The position numbers were made by a program, and so were the translations under genes. The notes under the pieces are model-generated. The model ran no database searches. It was given only the letters and a program-made list of their open reading frames with translations, and was not told the DNA's origin. Below, one piece after another: positions 1 to 21,306 of a stretch of 64,000 bases of DNA. How positions within the stretch are numbered: position 1 is the first letter of the stretch; every line of letters begins with the position of its first letter. Source of the stretch: Candidatus Yanofskybacteria bacterium (GTDB lineage: Bacteria; Patescibacteriota; Minisyncoccia; 2-02-FULL-40-12; GWA2-44-9). The stretch lies in the NCBI GenBank assembly GCA_003151795.1, contig PLYL01000008.1:3103-67102 (forward strand), written 5' to 3'.

Positions 1-470
1 CTTCGGGCGACTGGAGTGGTTCAAAGGGTCCAAGCGGTAGTGAAGTTGTCGGACCGTTTGCAGTGGACGGCACCAAGACCTACACATTGACATGCGATGG
101 AGGCGTCGGCACGGCGGTTCTCGTCGTCGGCCAGGGGGGACCGGGCGGTGATGCCAACACTGTCACTTCGCCCGACGGTTCCGTGACGGTCACGATTGTC
201 CAGCTGATTCCGGCGGCTGGCCCGCTAGTACCAGGGCAGCCGCAAATGATGAAGGTGCACGTCGTTAACAGAGGCGACGATCAGATTGAAATAGAAAATG
301 ACGTTTTCAATTCCATACATGATTTTCCAGCTCGCTCCGAAAATGATTCGAACTGGGGATCATCTTTCGGATCTCTCTCGGGTTCGTTCCCCATTATCCA
401 TCTGAAAGGAACATATAGCAAGACGTATCCACAGGTATCGTGGACGATGGAGTTCCCGGGCTGGCCTTAA
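1..470 (+). CDS. hypothetical protein, C-terminal part; reading frame is open to window edge (5'-truncated)
   Basis: ORF 63..470 in track; same frame has no stop back to nt 3; followed by intrinsic terminator. Confidence 0.5.
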   Translation, partial: SGDWSGSKGPSGSEVVGPFAVDGTKTYTLTCDGGVGTAVLVVGQGGPGGDANTVTSPDGSVTVTIVQLIPAAGPLVPGQPQMMKVHVVNRGDDQIEIENDVFNSIHDFPARSENDSNWGSSFGSLSGSFPIIHLKGTYSKTYPQVSWTMEFPGWP

Positions 471-5490: not shown

Positions 5491-5567
5491 GGGGGTGTAG
5501 CTCAATTGGTTAGAGCGCGTCCCTGTCACGGACGAGGTTGCGGGTTCGAGTCCCGTCACTCCCGCCA
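5491..5567 (+). tRNA. tRNA-Asp (anticodon GTC)
   Basis: cloverleaf folded by hand: acceptor GGGGGTG/CACTCCC, anticodon stem CGTCC/GGACG with loop CTGTCAC, T-loop GGTTCGAGT, encoded CCA. Confidence 0.9.
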
Positions 5568-13270: not shown

Positions 13271-14401
13271 ATGAATATTACAGTTCCAGAAGATAATAAC
13301 CTGTTAGATAAAGTTGAGGCAAGGCAAGATGCTGAGGGTTTGCGAATCAAGCGATTCTTGGCGATGCCGGATCTATCGCGTACTGAAGGCAGTCCGATCA
13401 AGGAGGTTGTTGAACGGATTCTCGCGCTCCCTGATTTTGCGGGCTTGGATGTTATTGAAGTTCCGGAAATAGTGCCGACTGATATTCATTTTGATCTATT
13501 TGATTTTCCCGCCGATCATCCGGCGCGATCTAAATCCGACACGTATTACGTAGACGATAACCATATTCTTCGCACCCACACGACGGTGATGTGGTACTAC
13601 TATCTGCAGGATCCTGATGTTAAACGCCGTATGGCTGAGGGTGAGCCCGTAGGTTGTTTCTGTTTTGGCAAGGTCTATCGCAAAGATGAGATTGATCGGA
13701 ATCACATGAATGTCTTTCACCAGATTGACGGTTGGTATCTCGCCCCAAAAGATAAAAAGATAATTGGTGCGAAAGAATTAGAAGAGGCTCTCCGAGGAAT
13801 TGGTCGGGCGGTATTTGGTCCAGACACCCCGCTCAATATAATTCCGGATACTTTTCCATTTACTGATCCATCCCGTCAAATGGAAGTAGAAAAGAAGGGT
13901 GTCTGGCTCGAAGTCTTGGGGAGCGGTGTCGTGAAGGGGAGCGTGCTCGAAAAATTTGGCGTGGATTCTTCTAAATGGAACGGTTGGGCGTTTGGGCCGG
14001 GTATTGAACGTCTGGCGATGGTTTCCATGGAATTGCCCGATATTCGTTTGCTCTGGTCACAGGATGAGCGGGTGAAGAAACAGCTCAAGCTCGGCCAGAA
14101 ATTCAAAGAAGTTTCCAAGTACCCACCAATCGTTCGCGATATTTCGTTCATCGTCCACAAGGATTTCATCCCCAACAATTATTTCGATTTAATTCGCGAT
14201 ATCGGCGGAGATTTGGTGGAAGAAGTTCATCTTCTCGATAAATACGAAAACGCCGAAAAATTCGGGCCCGATAAAATCAGCTATACTTACCGTATCACTT
14301 ATCGCTCTATCGACCGCACTCTCACGACCGAAGAAATTGAGCCGCTTCAAGAAAGAGTAATCTCGGAAACCAAGAAACAGTTCCAAGCGGAAATCCGGTA
14401 G
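13271..14401 (+). CDS. pheS: phenylalanyl-tRNA synthetase alpha subunit
   Basis: class II aaRS motifs (FPFTDPS…; GWAFGPGIERLAM motif 3). Confidence 0.9.
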   Translation: MNITVPEDNNLLDKVEARQDAEGLRIKRFLAMPDLSRTEGSPIKEVVERILALPDFAGLDVIEVPEIVPTDIHFDLFDFPADHPARSKSDTYYVDDNHILRTHTTVMWYYYLQDPDVKRRMAEGEPVGCFCFGKVYRKDEIDRNHMNVFHQIDGWYLAPKDKKIIGAKELEEALRGIGRAVFGPDTPLNIIPDTFPFTDPSRQMEVEKKGVWLEVLGSGVVKGSVLEKFGVDSSKWNGWAFGPGIERLAMVSMELPDIRLLWSQDERVKKQLKLGQKFKEVSKYPPIVRDISFIVHKDFIPNNYFDLIRDIGGDLVEEVHLLDKYENAEKFGPDKISYTYRITYRSIDRTLTTEEIEPLQERVISETKKQFQAEIR

Positions 14402-14403
14402 TT

Positions 14404-15321
14404 ATGTATAAATATCATTTGCCAAAACCAATTATCATAAAGCTCAATGATGAGTCAGGTTTTCGGTTAAGACAAAAAGCGGCAGAACATATTTCCATAA
14501 ATCAAAATAAAACCGGCGCCGAGCGGGGAAGTTCCGAGGAGCAAGGCTTTGGGGCGCTCGCGGAGATGGTTATACGAAATAAATTGGGTATGCCGGAAAT
14601 AAATCCCAAAGACCATCCTTTAGGATATGACCTCCTACTCCCTTCTGGAATAAAAGTTGATGTTAAATGTCGCGGCGGAACATTACCGTTTAAGGAAGAA
14701 TACGAAAGTAGTGACGGTATCGCAAGGGAAGCAAAGCATAATTTCTTCGCGCGCCAAATGCATGACGAAAGACTGGACGCCGATATTTATGTTATGACCC
14801 ATCTTGAAACTCCCAGCAAAAGAGAACTCCCGGGTACGACCAGACAAAGAAAATGGATATTGTACGTTTGCGGATGGGTATCAAAAGAGCGGGTTGCGAA
14901 TGAAGGCGTTTATCTGCCGCGAGGCTCTCTCACTGAACAAGGAAGAACATGGTTTCCGTATCGCGGGCAAGAGATAGAATATTATAATCGTAATCTGAAC
15001 GGATTAGAGAAGATGGAAGATTTATTGAGCATTGAATTGCCAGACGTTGAGAAAGACAGAAATCATAAGGGTGATTTAAACTTAACTTCCGCCGACGCAA
15101 TAAGGATAGCCTATGATCTTATTGGCCGTGGAGTGTTAAACGAAAAACACCTTGCTTTTATTCAGAAGGAAGCGGGTATATCAAAAATCGTGAAACCGAT
15201 TCTGAACCCGAATCAATATTTTCACTTGCTGTACTGGCTTAAAGAAAAAGGCGCTCTGACTGAAGTAGAAATAAAAAAAGCGAAAGAGATCCTTAAAGAA
15301 GAACCTTTTGATGGAATTTAA
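14404..15321 (+). CDS. putative PD-(D/E)xK nuclease, candidate restriction endonuclease partner of adjacent methyltransferase
   Basis: 'GYDLLLPSGIKVDVKCRGG' fits D…(D/E)xK; AT-rich; convergent with MTase gene, 4-nt overlap of stops. Confidence 0.35.
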   Translation: MYKYHLPKPIIIKLNDESGFRLRQKAAEHISINQNKTGAERGSSEEQGFGALAEMVIRNKLGMPEINPKDHPLGYDLLLPSGIKVDVKCRGGTLPFKEEYESSDGIAREAKHNFFARQMHDERLDADIYVMTHLETPSKRELPGTTRQRKWILYVCGWVSKERVANEGVYLPRGSLTEQGRTWFPYRGQEIEYYNRNLNGLEKMEDLLSIELPDVEKDRNHKGDLNLTSADAIRIAYDLIGRGVLNEKHLAFIQKEAGISKIVKPILNPNQYFHLLYWLKEKGALTEVEIKKAKEILKEEPFDGI

Positions 15322-16433
15322 AATAGCCTACTTGTATTGGCTCTGTATTGAGCCGCCGCCTCTTTCGTTCTTTTTCTAGAAATCTCCACATAGTCAACCT
15401 TATGCTTTTTAAAGAGATAGACTTCTTCATTTTTCTCAATCCCAATAAATTTTCTTCCTTCCAAAACTGCCGAGACAAGAAAGCTTCCGCTCCCACAAGT
15501 ATTATCTAATACAATATCACCCTCTTTAGTAAAGGTGCGAACAAGATAACGGCCAAGCTCTATAGGTTTTTGTGTAGGATGAAAAACTTCACCTTCGCTC
15601 TCGGCGGTTTTAAAATAAACTACATCGGTCGGATACCTCTCACCGTTACTTTTTACCTCTACTGTTTTGAAGTCGCCGTAGCTTCCTGTTAGCTGATCTT
15701 TTCTGAATCCTTTATTGTACGGTTCGCCGTATGTCATTTGAGGATTGTAGATTGGCTGATTTTTGTAAAAGATACAAATGTCTTCGTGTTTTCGCAGCGG
15801 CTGTTTTTTTGCGTTCAAAAAATTTGTGGGCTTTGATTTAATCCAGGTAATTTTGTACTTGAAAAGTTTTGGTTTAGAGAGCATTAAGTTAGCCGTAAAA
15901 AGTCCTTGGCCCGTGAGAGCGATTGCCCCGTTATCTTTAATAATCCGCTCGTAGTGTGTCCATAGCTGATCCAGCGGGATCACGCTATCCCAATGATTTT
16001 GAGTAGTGCCGTAGGGTAAATCGCACAAAATCATGTCCACAGATTTTGAGGGTATATCCACCATTATTTCCAAACAGTCGCCTTTGATTACCTTGTTTTC
16101 AAAATCAGTGATTATTTTTTTGCTTTTCTCTACTTTTGCTCCTATTTCTTCCGCTCCCATATTTTTTCGTAGGTACCATAAGCAATAGGTATTTACTGGC
16201 AGGCCCTCTTGATTGGCGCGTTGTTCAAGTTCCAGATAAGAATCTGTTCCAAGTAGGCCACGTAATTCACTACTCCCAAAATTAGCAATATTTTTGTATA
16301 GATCTTTATTCCTTTCTCCAAAGGCTAAGATAAATCCCTTTGCTTTCGGGTTAACATCTTTGTAGTCGGGGAAATAGACTGCTTTGAAAGTTTGGTGACT
16401 CGGCATAGATATATTATAGTATGATACCCCCAT
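15318..16433 (-). CDS. site-specific DNA methyltransferase (N6-adenine/N4-cytosine, beta class)
   Basis: motif IV 'DLPYG' (DPPY variant) precedes motif I 'DNTCGSGSF'; 'HPTQKP' motif. Confidence 0.85.
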   Translation of the reverse strand: MGVSYYNISMPSHQTFKAVYFPDYKDVNPKAKGFILAFGERNKDLYKNIANFGSSELRGLLGTDSYLELEQRANQEGLPVNTYCLWYLRKNMGAEEIGAKVEKSKKIITDFENKVIKGDCLEIMVDIPSKSVDMILCDLPYGTTQNHWDSVIPLDQLWTHYERIIKDNGAIALTGQGLFTANLMLSKPKLFKYKITWIKSKPTNFLNAKKQPLRKHEDICIFYKNQPIYNPQMTYGEPYNKGFRKDQLTGSYGDFKTVEVKSNGERYPTDVVYFKTAESEGEVFHPTQKPIELGRYLVRTFTKEGDIVLDNTCGSGSFLVSAVLEGRKFIGIEKNEEVYLFKKHKVDYVEISRKRTKEAAAQYRANTSRLF

Positions 16434-16531: not shown

Positions 16532-19500
16532 ATGGCTGATAAAGAGCTCAAAAAATCCGAATATACCGCCAAAGATATCCAAGTTCTTGAGGGGCTGGAA
16601 CCGGTCCGGAAACGGCCGGGGATGTATATCGGCTCGACGGGCGTCGACGGCTTGCATCACCTCATCTGGGAAGTGTTCGACAACTCGATTGACGAAGCCA
16701 TGGCCGGCCACGCCCATCATATCGAGGTTGGGCTTTTGGCCGACAACAAAGTTCGCGTCGCTGACGATGGCCGCGGCATCCCGACCGATATCCATCCTAA
16801 GACCAAAAAATCCGCCCTCGAAACCGCGGCCACGGTCTTGCATGCCGGCGGTAAATTCGAACAAGGCGCGTATAAAGTTTCCGGCGGTTTACACGGCGTC
16901 GGTTTGTCTGTTGTAAACGCGCTCTCGACCTGGATGAAAGCCGAAGTCTATCGCAAGCCGGATATCTTCGCTCAAGAATACAAAATCGGCAAACCGCAGG
17001 GGCCGGTCAAAAAAGTCGGGACCACCAAAAAGACAGGGACGACGATTACTTTCCAGCCCGACCCGACTATTTTCCCCGATACAACCTTCGACCTGCCGTA
17101 TATTCTTAATCACATTCGCCAGCAGGCCTACTTGACCAAGGGCGTTAAGATTACCGTGACTGATGCCCGTAATCCGATTATTGTCGCCGGCAAAGATGGC
17201 AACCTGCCTGCCGGCAGGCAGGGAAAACAGGAAGCGCCGTTCGATTACACGTTTTATTTCGAAGGCGGGATTATGTCGTACGTTGATTTTTTGAATCACG
17301 GCGAAGAGGTCAAAAACAAAAACATTTTTTATGTCGGTAAGGAACAGCAGGACATGTTCGTCGAAGTTTCTCTGCAGTATATCGAAGAGCTCACGAGCCG
17401 AGAATTATCTTTTGCCAACAACATCCATACGATTGAGGGCGGGACGCATCTGACTGGTTTTCGTACCGCGCTGACCAGAATTTTGAATGACTACGCGCGC
17501 AAGAACGGATTTTTGAAAGAAAAAGACGATAACTTGTCAGGCGAAGACGTCCGGGAAGGCTTGACGGTGGTGATTTCAATCAAACTTCGCGAACCTCAAT
17601 TCGAAGGCCAGACCAAAGCCAAGCTCGGTACAACCGAAGCCCGCAATGCCGTCGAGACCGTGATGACCGTTGAGTTCACGGACTGGCTGGAGCGTAATCC
17701 GAACGATGCTCGGGCGATTCTCGAAAAAGTTATCCTGGCCTCGAAAGCCCGTCTCGCGGCCAAAGCGGCTCGCGATACGGTGCTGCGCAAGGGCGCCCTG
17801 GAAGGCATGACCTTGCCGGGCAAGCTCGCCGATTGTTCCAGCCGGGATGCTTCGGAATCCGAATTGTTTATCGTCGAGGGCGACTCGGCCGGCGGATGTT
17901 TTTCGGGCGATACAAAAGTCGCTTTGCTTGATGGCAGGAACCTTTCGTTTAAGGAATTAGTAGAGGAGGACATGACTGGTAAGAAAAACTACTGCTACAC
18001 CATCAAAAATGACGGCAATGTCAGCGTGGCCCAAATTTTACATCCGCGAATTACTAAAAAGAACGCAGAAATAATAAGGGTTACTTTAGATAATAAAGAG
18101 GAAATTAGATGTACCCCAGATCATAAATTTATGTTGCGAGACGGGACTTATAAGGAAGCTCAATACCTAACAAAAAAGGATTCGTTGATGCCATTGTATA
18201 GAAGGTTGTCTAAAATCGCCGGTCGGATAACCATCAAAGGTTATGAGATGGTATATAATCCCGCCGAACATTATTGGCGGTTCACTCATGTTTTGGCGGA
18301 TCAATACAATCTTGCTCGAGATGTCTATACTCCTGAAGGTGGGGAAGCTCGGCATCACAAAGATTTTAATAAGCTGAACAACAACCCCGACAACTTGGTT
18401 CGTATGGGGAAACAAGAACATTTAATGTTTCATACGCAATGGCTTGAAAAGACAGCCCGAACACCGGAAGTATTAGAAAAACTGCGTAAGATTAGACAAA
18501 GTCCTGAATATCGCGCCAAAATAAGCCAGACCATGAAAATGCCAGCCATGCGGGCAATGCTTAGTGAACGCGCGAAGAAACAATGGGAAAATAAAGAATA
18601 TAAGGAATTTATGAATTCCAAGTTTTTAGAATTCTATAATTCCAATGAAGAATATCGAAAAACTAATAATAAACTTCTTAATAAAGCCCAAAAAACTTAT
18701 TGGGCCAGTAAAGACAATCGTCATGAACAGGCCAAGCGAGTTGCAGATTTCTTTGATAAAAATCCGGAATACCGAGCCTTGCTTTCTCAACAGGCGAAAC
18801 GGCAGTGGGACAATAAAGAGCTGGTGGCTTGGCGAAGTTTGGAGACTAAAAAACAGTGGACCCCCGAGTTCAGAGCCAAGAGAAAAGAGGCTTATAGCAA
18901 AACATACTTTACCCATACGATTAAATTTATGAAGGGTATTTTTGATCGGGATCATTTTCTTGATCAGTATGATGTCTTGAGAATTCAAAATAAAAGTCGA
19001 AATTTGTTACGAAGTGAAACATTCTGCCACAGGTTCTTTGACGACAATCCAACCGCCATGCTAGATGCGGTAAAAAACTATAACCATAAAATTAGGAAGG
19101 TAGAGAAATTAATTGAATGGACTGATGTCTATGATTTAGAAGTCTCTGGGACTCACAATTTTGCTTTGGCAAGTGGTGTCTTTGTTCACAATAGTTCCAA
19201 GCAAGCCCGTAATCGCCATACCCAAGCCATCTTGCCGTTGCGCGGGAAGATTTTGAATGTCGAAAAAGCCCGTCTCGACAAAATGCTCGCCTCGCAAGAA
19301 ATCCGCAATTTGATTATCGCTATGGGTACGGCCATCGCCGAGGAGTTTGATTTATCCAAATTGCGCTACCACAAGATTGTCATCATGACCGACGCCGACG
19401 TTGACGGCGCCCATATCCGGACATTGTTGCTCACGCTTTTCTATCGATATTTCCCGCAAGTTATCGCGGGCGGCCATTTGTATATCGCACAACCGCCGTT

Positions 19501-19933
19501 ATACAAAGTGCAAAAAGGAACCAAGATTCAATACGCATACAACGACGCGGAGAAAGATAAGGTGCTCGATATGTATCGAAAGGAAGCAGGCGAGAAAGCC
19601 GTCACCAAACCGAAAAAAATAAAAACAGACGCCGGCTTTGAAGTAACGGATCTTGATGGCAATGGCGCGGAACCCTCTTTCGCTGAAGCTTCGGCGGGCG
19701 AGGAAAAAATCGCTGGTGTTTCTCTCCAGCGTTACAAAGGTCTTGGTGAAATGAATCCGGACCAGTTGTGGGAAACCACCCTCAATCCCGAGAACCGAGT
19801 CTTACTTCGTGTTGATGTGAAAGATGCCCAAGCGGCCGACAAGGTCTTTGATATTCTGATGGGCTCCGATGTCATGCCCCGCAAGAAATTTATCCAGACC
19901 CACGCCAAGTCAGTAGTTAATCTAGATATCTAG
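16532..19933 (+). CDS. gyrB: DNA gyrase subunit B, interrupted in-frame by an intein
   Basis: N-term GHKL ATPase motifs; EGDSAGG|C…HN|[26 protein letters not shown]; C-term [10 protein letters not shown]. Confidence 0.95.
   Translation: [1133 protein letters not shown]
17897..19192 (+). mobile_element. GyrB intein (~432 aa) with HNH homing-endonuclease-like core and repeated basic motifs
   Basis: starts Cys (tgt 17897), ends His-Asn (19187-19192), +1 Ser; internal '[29 protein letters not shown]' HNH motif; repeats PEYRAK.SQ..K..W.NKE. Confidence 0.85.
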
Positions 19934-20209: not shown

Positions 20210-20276
20210 ATTTATCCGCCCGAGGCGGATGAGAAGTTTGCAACTACTCACTCCGTTCGCAGGCAAACATCACATG
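20210..20276 (+). repeat. 67-bp leader repeat copy 1 (palindrome ATCCGCCcGAGGCGGAT + conserved tail ending in ATG of nusG)
   Basis: 66/67 identical to 20823..20889. Confidence 0.85.
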
Positions 20277-20819
20277 CCCAAACAAGTTGAAACAGGACAA
20301 CGCAATTGGTTCGCGATTCATACCTATGCCGGGTATGAGGATAACGTCGCGCGCAATTTAACCCAGCGGATTGAGTCGCTCGGTTTTGAAAATAAGATTT
20401 TTAATGTTTTGGTCCCGAAAGAAAAAAAGATTCGCATCAAATCCGGCAAGCGCGAGACCATCGAAGAGAAGATTTATCCGGGCTACGTCTTGGTGGAAAT
20501 GATTGTCGACGATGCTTCGTGGTATGTCGTGCGCAACACGCCCAACGTCACCGGCTTCATCGGCGCCGGGACCGTGCCGACACCGCTCGCGCCAGGCGAA
20601 GTGGAAGTTTTGCTCAAGCGCATGGGCGTGGATGAGCCGAAATACAAGATTGACGTGGCGGCGGGCGACCGAGTCAAGATTACCGACGGGCCGTTCAAAG
20701 ATTTCGACGGCAAGATTGCCGAGATTGACCCCGAGAAAGGCCGTGTTAAAGTGCTGGTGACGATTTTCGGGCGCGAGACGCCAGTCGAATTAGACTTTTT
20801 ACAGATTAAAAAATTATAA
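20274..20819 (+). CDS. nusG: transcription termination/antitermination factor NusG
   Basis: NGN and KOW domain motifs; start at ATG 20274 (MPKQ…) rather than track 20229. Confidence 0.9.
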   Translation: MPKQVETGQRNWFAIHTYAGYEDNVARNLTQRIESLGFENKIFNVLVPKEKKIRIKSGKRETIEEKIYPGYVLVEMIVDDASWYVVRNTPNVTGFIGAGTVPTPLAPGEVEVLLKRMGVDEPKYKIDVAAGDRVKITDGPFKDFDGKIAEIDPEKGRVKVLVTIFGRETPVELDFLQIKKL

Positions 20820-20822
20820 ATA

Positions 20823-20889
20823 ATTTATCCGCCAGAGGCGGATGAGAAGTTTGCAACTACTCACTCCGTTCGCAGGCAAACATCACATG
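20823..20889 (+). repeat. 67-bp leader repeat copy 2 (ends in ATG of rplK)
   Basis: 66/67 identical to 20210..20276. Confidence 0.85.
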
Positions 20890-21306
20890 GCCAAGAAAAT
20901 CAAGACAATCGTAAAGTTACAGGTTATCGCCGGTGGTTTAGAGCCGTCAAAAATCGGGCAGGCTTTGGGGCCTCATGGTTTGAATCTCCAGCAGTTCATG
21001 TCGCAGGTCAACGAAGCGACCAAAGACAAAGCCGGCCAGCAGATTCCGGTCGAGATTACGATTTATGACGACCGGACGTTCTCATTTATTTTAAAGACTC
21101 CGCCGGCCGCTTATCTTTTGCACCGAGCTGCGGGGATTGAAAAGGGTTCGGGCGTGCCCAACAAGACTAAAGTCGGCACCGTGACCAAAGCCCAAGTTAA
21201 AGAAATTGCCGAACAAAAGATGGGCGACTTGAACGCCAACGATATCAATGCCGCCGCCAAGATTATCGAAGGCACCGCCCGCTCGATGGGCATCGACGTT
21301 AAGTAG
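20887..21306 (+). CDS. rplK: 50S ribosomal protein L11
   Basis: [17 protein letters not shown]… L11 N-terminus; start ATG 20887. Confidence 0.9.

Follow-up and report, generated by a model that had tools for sequence, protein, structure and literature searches.

A class 1 intein with predicted splicing activity and an HNH endonuclease domain in the GyrB protein of a Candidatus Yanofskybacteria-like bacterium

The GyrB inteins of cyanobacteria, such as that of Synechocystis sp. PCC 6803 (the Ssp GyrB intein) with its relatives, share the host protein and the insertion point (EGDSAGG|S) with the intein that is described here. The Ssp GyrB intein is about 435 aa long and is the intein that Dalgaard et al. 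assigned to the HNH family in 1997. Experiments on DNA cleavage by a GyrB HNH intein are not known to us. A putative endonuclease domain has been described for the Ssp GyrB intein, which is a natural intein and undergoes splicing in E. coli (PMC3620165). Judging from its title, a paper of 1997 reported an HNH-family intein (Dalgaard et al., NAR 25:4626, cited in PMC8966425). The GyrB inteins of Aetokthonos, Waterburya and Pseudanabaena are 50–56% identical to the intein under study and have the same junctions, but their hosts belong to a phylum other than the CPR, and the sequences have diverged by about 50%. The link to the Ssp GyrB intein is drawn through these cyanobacterial homologues. A text search of the literature retrieved nothing that paired a GyrB intein with HNH, or inteins with CPR and gyrase.

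I-HmuI of Bacillus phage SPO1 (PDB 1U3E) is a free-standing HNH homing endonuclease with an extended, monomeric architecture, in which helical elements that bind DNA come after an HNH core without zinc-binding cysteines. The enzyme is encoded by an intron and lies outside any Hint domain, whereas the endonuclease described here is located inside one. Where the intein has some eight or nine repeat helices, I-HmuI has a pair of minor-groove helices and a helix-turn-helix. I-HmuI is a nickase. A profile search detected no sequence similarity between I-HmuI and the intein. The minor-groove helix repeats NUMOD3/IENR2 (I-TevI, I-BmoI, I-HmuI) and the repeats of the intein are alike in being short, basic, single-helix units of about 17 aa downstream of the catalytic domain of a homing endonuclease. 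The NUMOD3 motif is G-K-x-H-S-E-E-T-K-x-K-I-S; in contrast, the intein repeat has the motif P-E-Y-R-x-K-x-S-x3-K-x2-W with conserved aromatic residues.

The gyrB precursor and its splicing domain

The window, i.e., the whole stretch of 64,000 nt that was analysed, contains a gyrB precursor ORF at positions 16532..19933 of the plus strand, on which all features of gyrB given below are located. It is a single, continuous ORF of 3402 nt that has no frameshift and no interrupting stop codon and encodes 1133 aa including the intein, or 701 aa after splicing; the domains HATPase_c, DNA_gyraseB, Toprim and DNA_gyraseB_C were all matched. The N-extein of 455 aa (16532..17896) ends with the Toprim motif ...ELFIVEGDSAGG, and the C-extein of 246 aa plus stop codon (19193..19933), which starts with Ser+1-SKQARNRH, comprises the remainder of Toprim and the GyrB C-terminal domain. 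Both were delimited by the Pfam domains and by the junction reading GDSAGG|C...VHN|SSKQARNRH, by which the 432 residues of the intein extend from nt 17897 to nt 19192. The first-pass annotation had put the insertion at 17897-19192 between GDSAGG and SKQARNRH, with Cys at the start, His-Asn at the end and Ser at +1; the positions proved to be exact to the base and the residues were as described. A frameshift that disrupts the gene, which it had named as a refuting observation, was looked for and was absent. Its remark that the intein is AT-rich was borne out as well, with GC contents of 0.391 for the intein and 0.518 for the exteins (GC3 0.398 versus 0.611), and the GC content differed in the same direction in 27 of 27 related loci.

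The Hint N-terminal lobe (residues 1-104, 17897..18208) was matched by TIGR01445 (1.1e-13), and its model is rich in beta-strands with pLDDT values of 90-96. Block A is C1-FSGDTKVALLDG and block B is T73-P-D-H76, and T73 and H76 are invariant in 50 sequences. The Hint C-terminal lobe (residues 396-432, 19082..19192) was matched by TIGR01443 (1.2e-6), and its residues are near-invariant; it contains block F (DVYD413LEVSGTH420NF) and block G (ALASGVFVH431N432). Pfam Intein_splicing yielded 77.5 bits. The intein call made earlier, for which a search with intein HMMs had been proposed as a check, was thus verified, since blocks A, B, F and G were all found and the Pfam and TIGR models matched. The insertion has the Hint fold and is in frame in a conserved protein with homologues that are contiguous over the site; its key residues are those of class 1 inteins, i.e., the nucleophile Cys1, the TxxH of block B, and the terminal His431-Asn432 followed by Ser+1. 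Judging from these sequence features, gyrB carries an intact intein that is predicted to be self-splicing; for the homologous Ssp GyrB intein, splicing in E. coli is on record (PMC3620165).

The intact residues and the fold suggest the following course of splicing. Cys1 would form a thioester with the aid of Thr73 and His76 of block B, and the attack of Ser+1 on the thioester would generate a branched ester. Cyclisation of Asn432, assisted by His431 and the Asp and His of block F, would release the intein, and an O-to-N shift would restore GDSAGG-SSKQ and thereby a functional GyrB of 701 aa.

No additional intein was detected in the other large ORFs of the window that were inspected, i.e., DnaE, TopA, ThrRS, GatB and PheS. 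A comparison of the window with Rfam yielded a tRNA at 5491-5564 as the sole match and none in the intein and its surroundings.

The endonuclease domain and its basic helical repeats

The HNH (His-Me finger) endonuclease domain comprises residues 105-185 (18209..18451), and a beta-hairpin (ITIKGYEMV...WRFTH) is followed by a beta-beta-alpha core. The first-pass annotation had noticed an HNH signature in the centre of the intein, and the string ARHHKDFNKLNNNPDNLVRMGKQEHLMFH was indeed found at residues 151-179. The core motif H153-H154-K-D156-F-N-K-L-N161-N162-N-P-D-N166-L...H175...H179 (18353..18433) was delineated by family conservation: among 50 family members with an identity of only 47-63% to the intein, conservation is at least 90% at H153, H154, D156, N161, N162, N166, H175 and H179, and the catalytic and metal-binding residues are invariant in a set of 20 members. 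HNH families of PHROG matched the domain at E-values of about 1e-7, and Foldseek retrieved HNH homing endonucleases of phages by the dozen with a probability of 1.0, in agreement with a beta-beta-alpha-metal fold. Pfam HNH_3 scored 21.9-22.7 bits, which is under the gathering cut-off of 24.8 bits, and covered only the last 24 positions of the profile, so that membership in HNH_3 is borderline by sequence, while membership in the HNH superfamily is supported; within the family, 39 of 50 members matched HNH_3 at E<=1 (best E 4.5e-5). A profile search with an HMM of the central region of the intein against the PDB did not match any solved structure by sequence, and therefore the HNH assignment rests on the fold matches and the PHROG families. 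A small helical subdomain that is possibly helix-turn-helix-like (residues 346-395, 18932..19081) forms the C-terminal end of the endonuclease.

The HNH domain is followed by a basic array of predicted helices (residues 186-345, 18452..18931; pLDDT up to 97) with a net charge of +18 and a pI of 10.05. It is made up of roughly eight or nine units, each with a single helix and a length of 13-22 aa (about 17), which usually start with P-E-[YF]-R and end with W, Y or F. The repetition was confirmed: the top pair of 14-aa windows scored 58 compared with 25 +/- 3 in 200 shuffles, 88 window pairs scored at least 20 compared with 10 +/- 7 in shuffles, and an alignment of the family profiles of residues 214-242 and 288-316 with hhalign had a probability of 94.7% (E 5.7e-8). 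The claim of at least four repeats agrees with the result obtained with a unit HMM of 16 aa, which was built solely from unrelated nuclease proteins and found four units, namely PEYRAKISQTMK (residues 203-214, 18503..18538; 15.6 bits, E 8e-7), PAMRAMLSERAKKQW (residues 216-230, 18542..18586; 10.0 bits, E 5e-5), NPEYRALLSQQAKRQW (residues 289-304, 18761..18808; 17.0 bits, E 3e-7) and PEFRAKRKEA (residues 323-332, 18863..18892; 6.2 bits, E 9e-4). The repeats had been said to flank the HNH motif; in fact, all of them lie after it.

The repeats had also been called NUMOD-type, and of this designation the association with nucleases could be retained, while the identity could not. At E<=1, no Pfam NUMOD model was among the matches of the window or among the 25 Pfam families that were matched most often when its 49 relatives were included, and at E<=10 none matched the repeat region, although very weak matches may be hidden by the filters of HMMER; the label NUMOD3 was therefore rejected. 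In contrast, a phmmer search of 1.84 billion proteins revealed matches of the repeat at E-values from 1e-3 to 5e-8 in arrays fused to nucleases. The fusion partners are GIY-YIG-like (P0330), Vsr/DUF559-like (P0349), and MTES_1575-like plus Mom (P0331, P0346), with all Pfam matches of nuclease domains in these four proteins under their cut-offs. A short helical repeat thus recurs beside different nuclease catalytic domains, and, because tandem arrays are fused to GIY-YIG-like and Vsr-like nucleases, it is a nuclease-associated module that probably binds DNA. At the level of sequence, the intein repeats are a separate, unmodelled repeat that is nuclease-associated in the NUMOD sense, which supports "works like a NUMOD" and not "is a NUMOD".

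The same order of domains was found in a protein of Bacillus phage SP-15 (SP15_022, "hypothetical protein"), the HNH intein of which aligns over the whole length with 28% identity (E 4e-40) and is composed of Hint-N, HNH, PE[FY]R-type repeats, a helical domain and Hint-C. It differs in its extein, in a shorter repeat array and in its length of about 377 aa. A phage terminase of 1117 aa (A0A8S5M786) was matched in BFVD by Foldseek (E 1.8e-3); its length and this match suggest that it contains an intein.

Distribution, selection and mobility

Homologues of the intein were found in 1548 proteins at E<=1e-5, and 116 of the best 120 of these have the junction at the GyrB EGDSAGG|S site. The best matches at this site stem from CPR bacteria, DPANN archaea, Chloroflexota and cyanobacteria; 33 intein loci were found in GTDB genomes, and the architecture recurs in hundreds of independent assemblies. 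Most full-length inteins of the family have 429-435 aa, and 31 align end to end. With the same insertion point as the GyrB intein allele and homology over its whole length, the intein is a member of a widespread GyrB intein family that is recognised in public annotation, where many homologues go by the name "intein-containing DNA gyrase subunit B" in the source records; it is real but ordinary.

The nearest inteins are those of Candidatus Yanofskybacteria loci L001 (CAIKUK010000023.1) and L002 (MGJA01000010.1), which have 432 aa, are located at the same site and align without gaps at 86% identity, i.e., about 14% amino-acid divergence. Their exteins are 82-92% identical to those of the window, the gyrB of which has a higher extein GC3. 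In comparisons with these two loci, pN was 0.056-0.07 and pS 0.48-0.66, and the Hint, HNH and repeat segments had dN/dS values of about 0.04-0.08, which were similar in the exteins and are approximate because synonymous sites are near saturation. The pS of the intein (0.56-0.62) was lower than that of the extein (0.66-0.74). By these estimates, every subdomain of the intein is under strong purifying selection. A second Yanofskybacteria MAG (L009) has exteins that are 79-81% identical and an intein that is 57% identical.

Intein-less alleles with an identical junction were found in L036 (N-extein 92% identical) and L035 (88%), which are interleaved with the intein-bearing L002 (91%) and L001 (88%). 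In these intein-less relatives EGDSAGG|SSKQARNRH is unbroken, and the DNA of the empty site was found in both; it reads GGCGACTCGGCCGGTGGC|TCGTCAAAGCAAGCC, and the junction of L036 is ...GAAGGCGACTCGGCCGGTGGC|TCGTCAAAGCAAGCCCGCAAT... A search with the spliced protein revealed G[DE]SAGG directly followed by S or T in 120 of 120 GyrB relatives listed, three of which have the identical SSKQARNRHTQA; because a spliced query favours intein-less matches by construction, these numbers show that empty sites exist and give no frequency. Intein and extein identities were weakly correlated (Spearman 0.21), and the similarity of inteins was 0.54 for pairs labelled bacterial versus archaeal and 0.56 for same-domain pairs, with the reservation that taxonomic labels of MAGs may be wrong. 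These figures, the divergent intein of L009, and the lower pS and GC3 of the intein relative to the exteins speak for horizontal spread. The combination of purifying selection, empty sites in equally close relatives and weak coupling between intein and host fits a live homing element.

It is very probable that the element, which interrupts the catalytic Toprim motif (EGDSAGG|S) of GyrB on the chromosome of a Candidatus Yanofskybacteria-like member of the Patescibacteria/CPR, is a class 1 intein with two functions and both splices and homes via its HNH endonuclease. The excised protein of 432 aa would be an I-HmuI-like HNH (His-Me finger) endonuclease. It may use the long basic repeat array and the small C-terminal helical domain to bind a gyrB allele that lacks the intein and would nick or cut close to the insertion point. 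Repair templated by the intein-bearing allele would then copy the element into the empty site.

Alternative explanations and implications

A reading in which the insertion escapes splicing and disrupts gyrB, as a pseudogene or an assembly artefact, is effectively refuted. The continuity of the ORF led to the rejection of this reading, and the intact splicing residues, the strong purifying selection on the exteins and the recurrence in so many assemblies also speak against it. It is improbable that the intein splices with an inactive endonuclease, as a vertically inherited passenger whose sole reason for persisting is that an essential gene would be destroyed if the intein were lost imprecisely. 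The intein identity to L001 and L002, which is close to that of the exteins, and the HNH_3 score under the threshold would be in line with a passenger. However, a dead endonuclease should drift, whereas dN/dS of the HNH and repeat segments is 0.045-0.08, as low as that of the Hint domain, the catalytic residues are near-invariant among members that are about 50% divergent, and the length has been kept in most full-length members. The empty sites and the weak coupling to the host argue against a passenger as well.

For the helical array, a function in oligomerisation or as a scaffold, resembling the helical rope of GerD, or in the regulation of splicing was considered as an alternative to DNA recognition, and it appears unlikely. 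GerD is an alpha-helical trimer, a rope that does not bind DNA (PMC11841064), and the Pfam model scored above its threshold in the more regular arrays of P0331 (82 bits) and P0349 (52 bits); the conserved aromatic residues at both ends of the units also suggest packing of helices against each other. However, the GerD score of the array in the window is not significant (E 0.2-0.5), its charge and pI are high, and the fusion, again and again, to nuclease-like domains as varied as HNH, GIY-YIG-like, Vsr/DUF559-like and MTES_1575-like is what one would expect if the module binds a target. By way of the more regular arrays in other proteins, GerD is the sole Pfam relative of the repeat, an observation that counts against homing and DNA binding. 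It is tempting, but quite speculative, to propose that the P-E-Y/F-R-x-K-x-S-x3-K-x2-W helix of about 17 aa is an undescribed modular DNA-recognition repeat that lets homing endonucleases with different kinds of catalytic domain recognise long targets, each repeat possibly being related to the DNA sequence. On this reading, the matches to GerD, the only Pfam model that covers the repeat, would be accidental. To our knowledge, no structure of this repeat has been solved. The copies in the intein, about eight or nine, are degenerate, whereas the proteins with nuclease fusions have regular arrays of up to about 20.

For annotation, gyrB of this organism should be treated as one intein-containing gene, neither as a pseudogene nor as two split genes. 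GyrB inteins of this family (Ssp GyrB) already serve protein engineering, and new orthologues may prove practically useful. The basic repeat array in common with other nuclease families is the sole element that goes beyond the textbook, and if it binds DNA in a modular fashion, it could interest engineers of site-specific nucleases. Empty and occupied alleles coexist in close relatives with reduced CPR genomes, and homing is therefore directly testable. Among intein endonucleases the HNH class is rare, and the locus adds to it a well-preserved member on which selection apparently still acts.

An intein in the Toprim domain of GyrB and its surroundings

The gyrB precursor is encoded by a single open reading frame of 1133 aa (16532–19933, forward strand), which is interrupted by an insertion of 432 aa with the junctions ...ELFIVEGDSAGG|CFSGDTKVALLDG...HNFALASGVFVHN|SSKQARNRH.... 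Residues 1 and 432 map exactly to positions 17897 and 19192 of the forward strand, as had been proposed in the first-pass annotation. The remaining GyrB of 701 aa has the domains HATPase_c, DNA_gyraseB, Toprim and GyrB C-terminal, and the insertion splits the Toprim domain directly after the EGDSAGG motif. The Pfam model Intein_splicing matched residues 10–432 with 77.5 bits (E 1.2e-21, cut-off 35.8), and TIGR01445 and TIGR01443 matched the intein N-terminal (1.1e-13) and C-terminal (1.2e-6) regions. No residue of the class 1 pathway is missing, with Cys1, T73-x-x-H76 in block B, D413 and H420 in block F, and H431-N432 directly before Ser+1. An AlphaFold2 model based on 50 sequences had a mean pLDDT of 88. 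The Hint blocks were thus present and no frameshift was found, and both sequence and model support the assignment as an intein. Splicing would follow the class 1 route, with conversion of Cys1 to a thioester, trans-esterification by attack of Ser+1, cyclisation of Asn432, and an O-to-N shift that would rebuild the Toprim motif. Because the insertion interrupts this motif of an essential enzyme, only a precise removal would be tolerated.

The proposed AT-richness was verified: the GC content of the insertion is 0.391 versus 0.532 in the N-extein and 0.491 in the C-extein (whole window 0.477), GC3 is 0.398 versus 0.611 in the exteins, and GC was lower in the intein than in the extein at 27 of 27 loci, a difference partly due to the Lys-, Asn- and Glu-rich composition.

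Several further features were observed around gyrB. In the C-extein (19193–19933), the GyrB C-terminal region has a poorly conserved acidic/Gly-rich insert (…KPKKIKTDAGFEVTDLDGNGAEPSFAEASAGEEKIAG…; precursor residues about 1000–1060), across which the nucleotide identity to relatives falls to 0.54–0.67. At the intein-less locus L035 (1557–3674) of a close relative, gyrB was called as two genes, one of 586 aa and a shorter one of 102 aa with the GyrB C-terminal domain. This points to a frameshift, a misassembly or some other break near the C-terminal variable region. Between pheS (13271–14401) and gyrB, two convergent open reading frames lie at 14404–16433, one for a protein of 305 aa on the forward strand without Pfam or NCBIfam match, and one for an N4/N6 DNA methyltransferase of 371 aa on the reverse strand (PF01555, 1.7e-24). 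The GC content of this region is 0.36–0.41 versus about 0.52 in gyrB, and at L036, the locus of another intein-less relative, the pheS-gyrB gap is only about 470 nt with no gene called; the region looks like an inserted restriction-modification-like island. Upstream of pheS, L036 has a gene for 208 aa (258–884) with a weak LAGLIDADG_3 match, which could be the remnant of a free-standing homing endonuclease in the same neighbourhood. An 85-nt direct repeat is present only twice in the window (20210–20294 and 20823–20907; 91% identical, exact 41-nt core). Its copies adjoin the upstream side of nusG and rplK and run into their starts, producing an identical false N-terminus of 16 residues on both listed open reading frames. 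A GC-rich hairpin (TCCGCC-N-GAGGCGGA) lies within the repeat, which might serve as a shared terminator/promoter or as a leader cassette.

Family, distribution and selection

A search with the whole intein retrieved 1548 proteins at E<=1e-5, and in 116 of the best 120 of these the junction was at the same GyrB site. Full-length copies are mostly 429–435 aa long, can be aligned end to end, and are named "intein-containing DNA gyrase subunit B" in the source. Their hosts include Patescibacteria, Nanoarchaeota/Woesearchaeota, Chloroflexota, Omnitrophota, Methanosarcinales and cyanobacteria (Aetokthonos, Waterburya, Pseudanabaena), and the nearest copies in GTDB genomes belong to two Ca. Yanofskybacteria MAGs (86% identity, gap-free), so that this lineage is the probable origin of the window. 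An intein whose endonuclease belongs to the HNH family was described in 1997, according to the title of Dalgaard et al. as cited in PMC8966425 and PMC5050341. The NCBIfam model NF052663, which is RtcB-related, aligned with the window intein at 146.5 bits. We take the HNH intein of 1997 to be the Ssp GyrB intein. The latter, from Synechocystis, is an established natural intein that is able to splice and has a putative endonuclease domain (PMC3620165). The family to which the window intein belongs is known and widely annotated. The 539-aa protein SP15_022 of Bacillus phage SP-15 (L034 1853–3472; KT624200.1 12315–13934), annotated as "hypothetical protein", contains a complete homologous HNH intein at residues of about 110–486 between short exteins, with identical domain order and 28% identity (E 4e-40).

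In comparison with the intein-bearing Yanofskybacteria loci L001 and L002, pN was 0.056–0.07 and pS 0.48–0.66 in the Hint, HNH and repeat segments. The dN/dS of about 0.04–0.08 was comparable to that of the exteins (0.02–0.05), values that are rough because pS is near saturation. Purifying selection acts on every intein subdomain. The spliced junction region of 360 aa, a query that favours intein-less hits, matched GyrBs that are 94–95% identical over 360 aa and have an uninterrupted EGDSAGG|SSKQARNRHTQA. Gene neighbours are shared with the window, namely pheS upstream in L036 and secE, nusG, rplK and gatB downstream in L035. The identity of the whole N-extein to the window was 92% (L036) and 88% (L035) for intein-less versus 91% (L002) and 88% (L001) for intein-bearing loci, showing that empty sites occur in relatives as close as the intein-bearing ones and that the distribution among close relatives is patchy.

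The similarities of inteins and hosts were poorly coupled (Spearman 0.21, 351 pairs). Bacterium-versus-archaeon pairs had an intein similarity of 0.54 versus 0.56 for same-domain pairs, and an extein similarity of 0.51 versus 0.59, although the taxonomic labels of MAGs can be wrong. At L009, from another Yanofskybacteria MAG, the exteins are 79–81% identical and the intein 57%. For the same genome pairs, pS was lower in the intein (0.56–0.62) than in the extein (0.66–0.74), and composition and synonymous divergence point in the same direction. Taken together with purifying selection, empty sites and poor coupling, this suggests that the intein is a live element.

The HNH domain and the basic repeat array

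Residues of about 105–185 matched three PHROG "HNH endonuclease" families (best about 1e-7) and the Pfam model HNH_3 at 21.9–22.7 bits, slightly below the cut-off of 24.8. A separate model of residues 105–395 (pLDDT 92.6) matched dozens of phage HNH homing endonucleases among viral predicted structures with a probability of about 1.0. Across 50 relatives, which share only 47–63% identity with the window intein, the conservation of H153, H154, D156, N161, N162, N166, H175 and H179 is 90% or higher. The endonuclease is thus of the HNH and not the LAGLIDADG type, in line with the first reading.

The repeat array (residues about 186–345, forward strand) lies entirely downstream of the HNH motif. 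The best 14-aa self-match (221–234 versus 295–308) scored 58 versus 25 +/- 3 in shuffles, and a comparison of the family profiles of the two halves (hhalign) yielded a probability of 94.7% (E 5.7e-8), indicating that the duplication is old and conserved. Both models had one helix per unit (190–200, 203–213, 216–230, 233–249, 251–268, 272–288, 290–300, 308–318, 323–352), with pLDDT up to 97. A typical unit begins with P-E-[Y/F]-R and ends with W/Y/F, at a spacing of about 17 residues. A 16-residue HMM built only from foreign arrays found four units (203–214, 216–230, 289–304, 323–332; E 9e-4 to 3e-7), and the other helices are degenerate copies. The initial proposal of at least four repeats flanking the HNH core therefore held for the number of units and failed for their arrangement. 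With 38 Lys+Arg versus 20 Asp+Glu (net +18, pI 10.05), the charge and the domain context suggest that the array may bind DNA. The freed intein would act as an extended monomeric HNH enzyme similar to I-HmuI, which would recognize the empty gyrB site via the array and the C-terminal helical domain and nick or cut it, and the intein would be copied in by repair.

The repeat unit in other nuclease-like proteins

The repeats had been labelled NUMOD-type, a membership that is unsupported because at E<=1 neither the window nor a single one of 49 relatives was matched by a Pfam NUMOD model, and at E<=10 the repeat region was not matched either. An exhaustive phmmer search with residues 186–395 against 1.84 billion representatives yielded only 113 proteins at E<=1e-3. 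The majority appear to be GyrB inteins, judged from the match position in long hits and from four scanned proteins with intein or GyrB domains, while a minority are different proteins with regular tandem arrays of the unit (e.g., ADPEYRAKQSERSKRVW).

Long regular arrays of (A/W)DPEYRAKxSExxKRxW were seen in the non-intein proteins P0330, P0331, P0334, P0346, P0349, P0314 and P0323, fused to nuclease domains that are GIY-YIG-like, Vsr/DUF559-like or MTES_1575-like. All nuclease-domain matches were below the Pfam gathering cut-offs: GIY-YIG (E 0.01) together with a weak I-HmuI NUMOD-like C-terminal match (E 0.025) in P0330, Vsr and DUF559 (E about 4e-4) in P0349, and MTES_1575 in P0331 (E 1.3e-4) and P0346 (E 0.0045, beside GerD, E 0.0025). 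P0331 also has a Mom-family domain above the cut-off (64.8 bits). The only Pfam labels on the arrays were "GerD" or "STI1-HOP_DP"; GerD, a trimeric helical rope (PMC11841064), was the only model recognizing regular arrays (up to 82 bits, P0331), and its score for the window intein itself was not significant.

The fusion of arrays to nuclease-like domains, together with the units found in the intein by the HMM from foreign arrays, argues that the repeat, like the NUMODs, is a module associated with nucleases. In I-TevI and I-HmuI, NUMOD3 forms the minor-groove helix (PMC2853131); the intein repeat resembles it in the association with nucleases and represents a distinct repeat, for which Pfam has no model of its own. 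Within this known intein family, the somewhat novel aspect is solely the basic repeat, which is common to other nuclease types.
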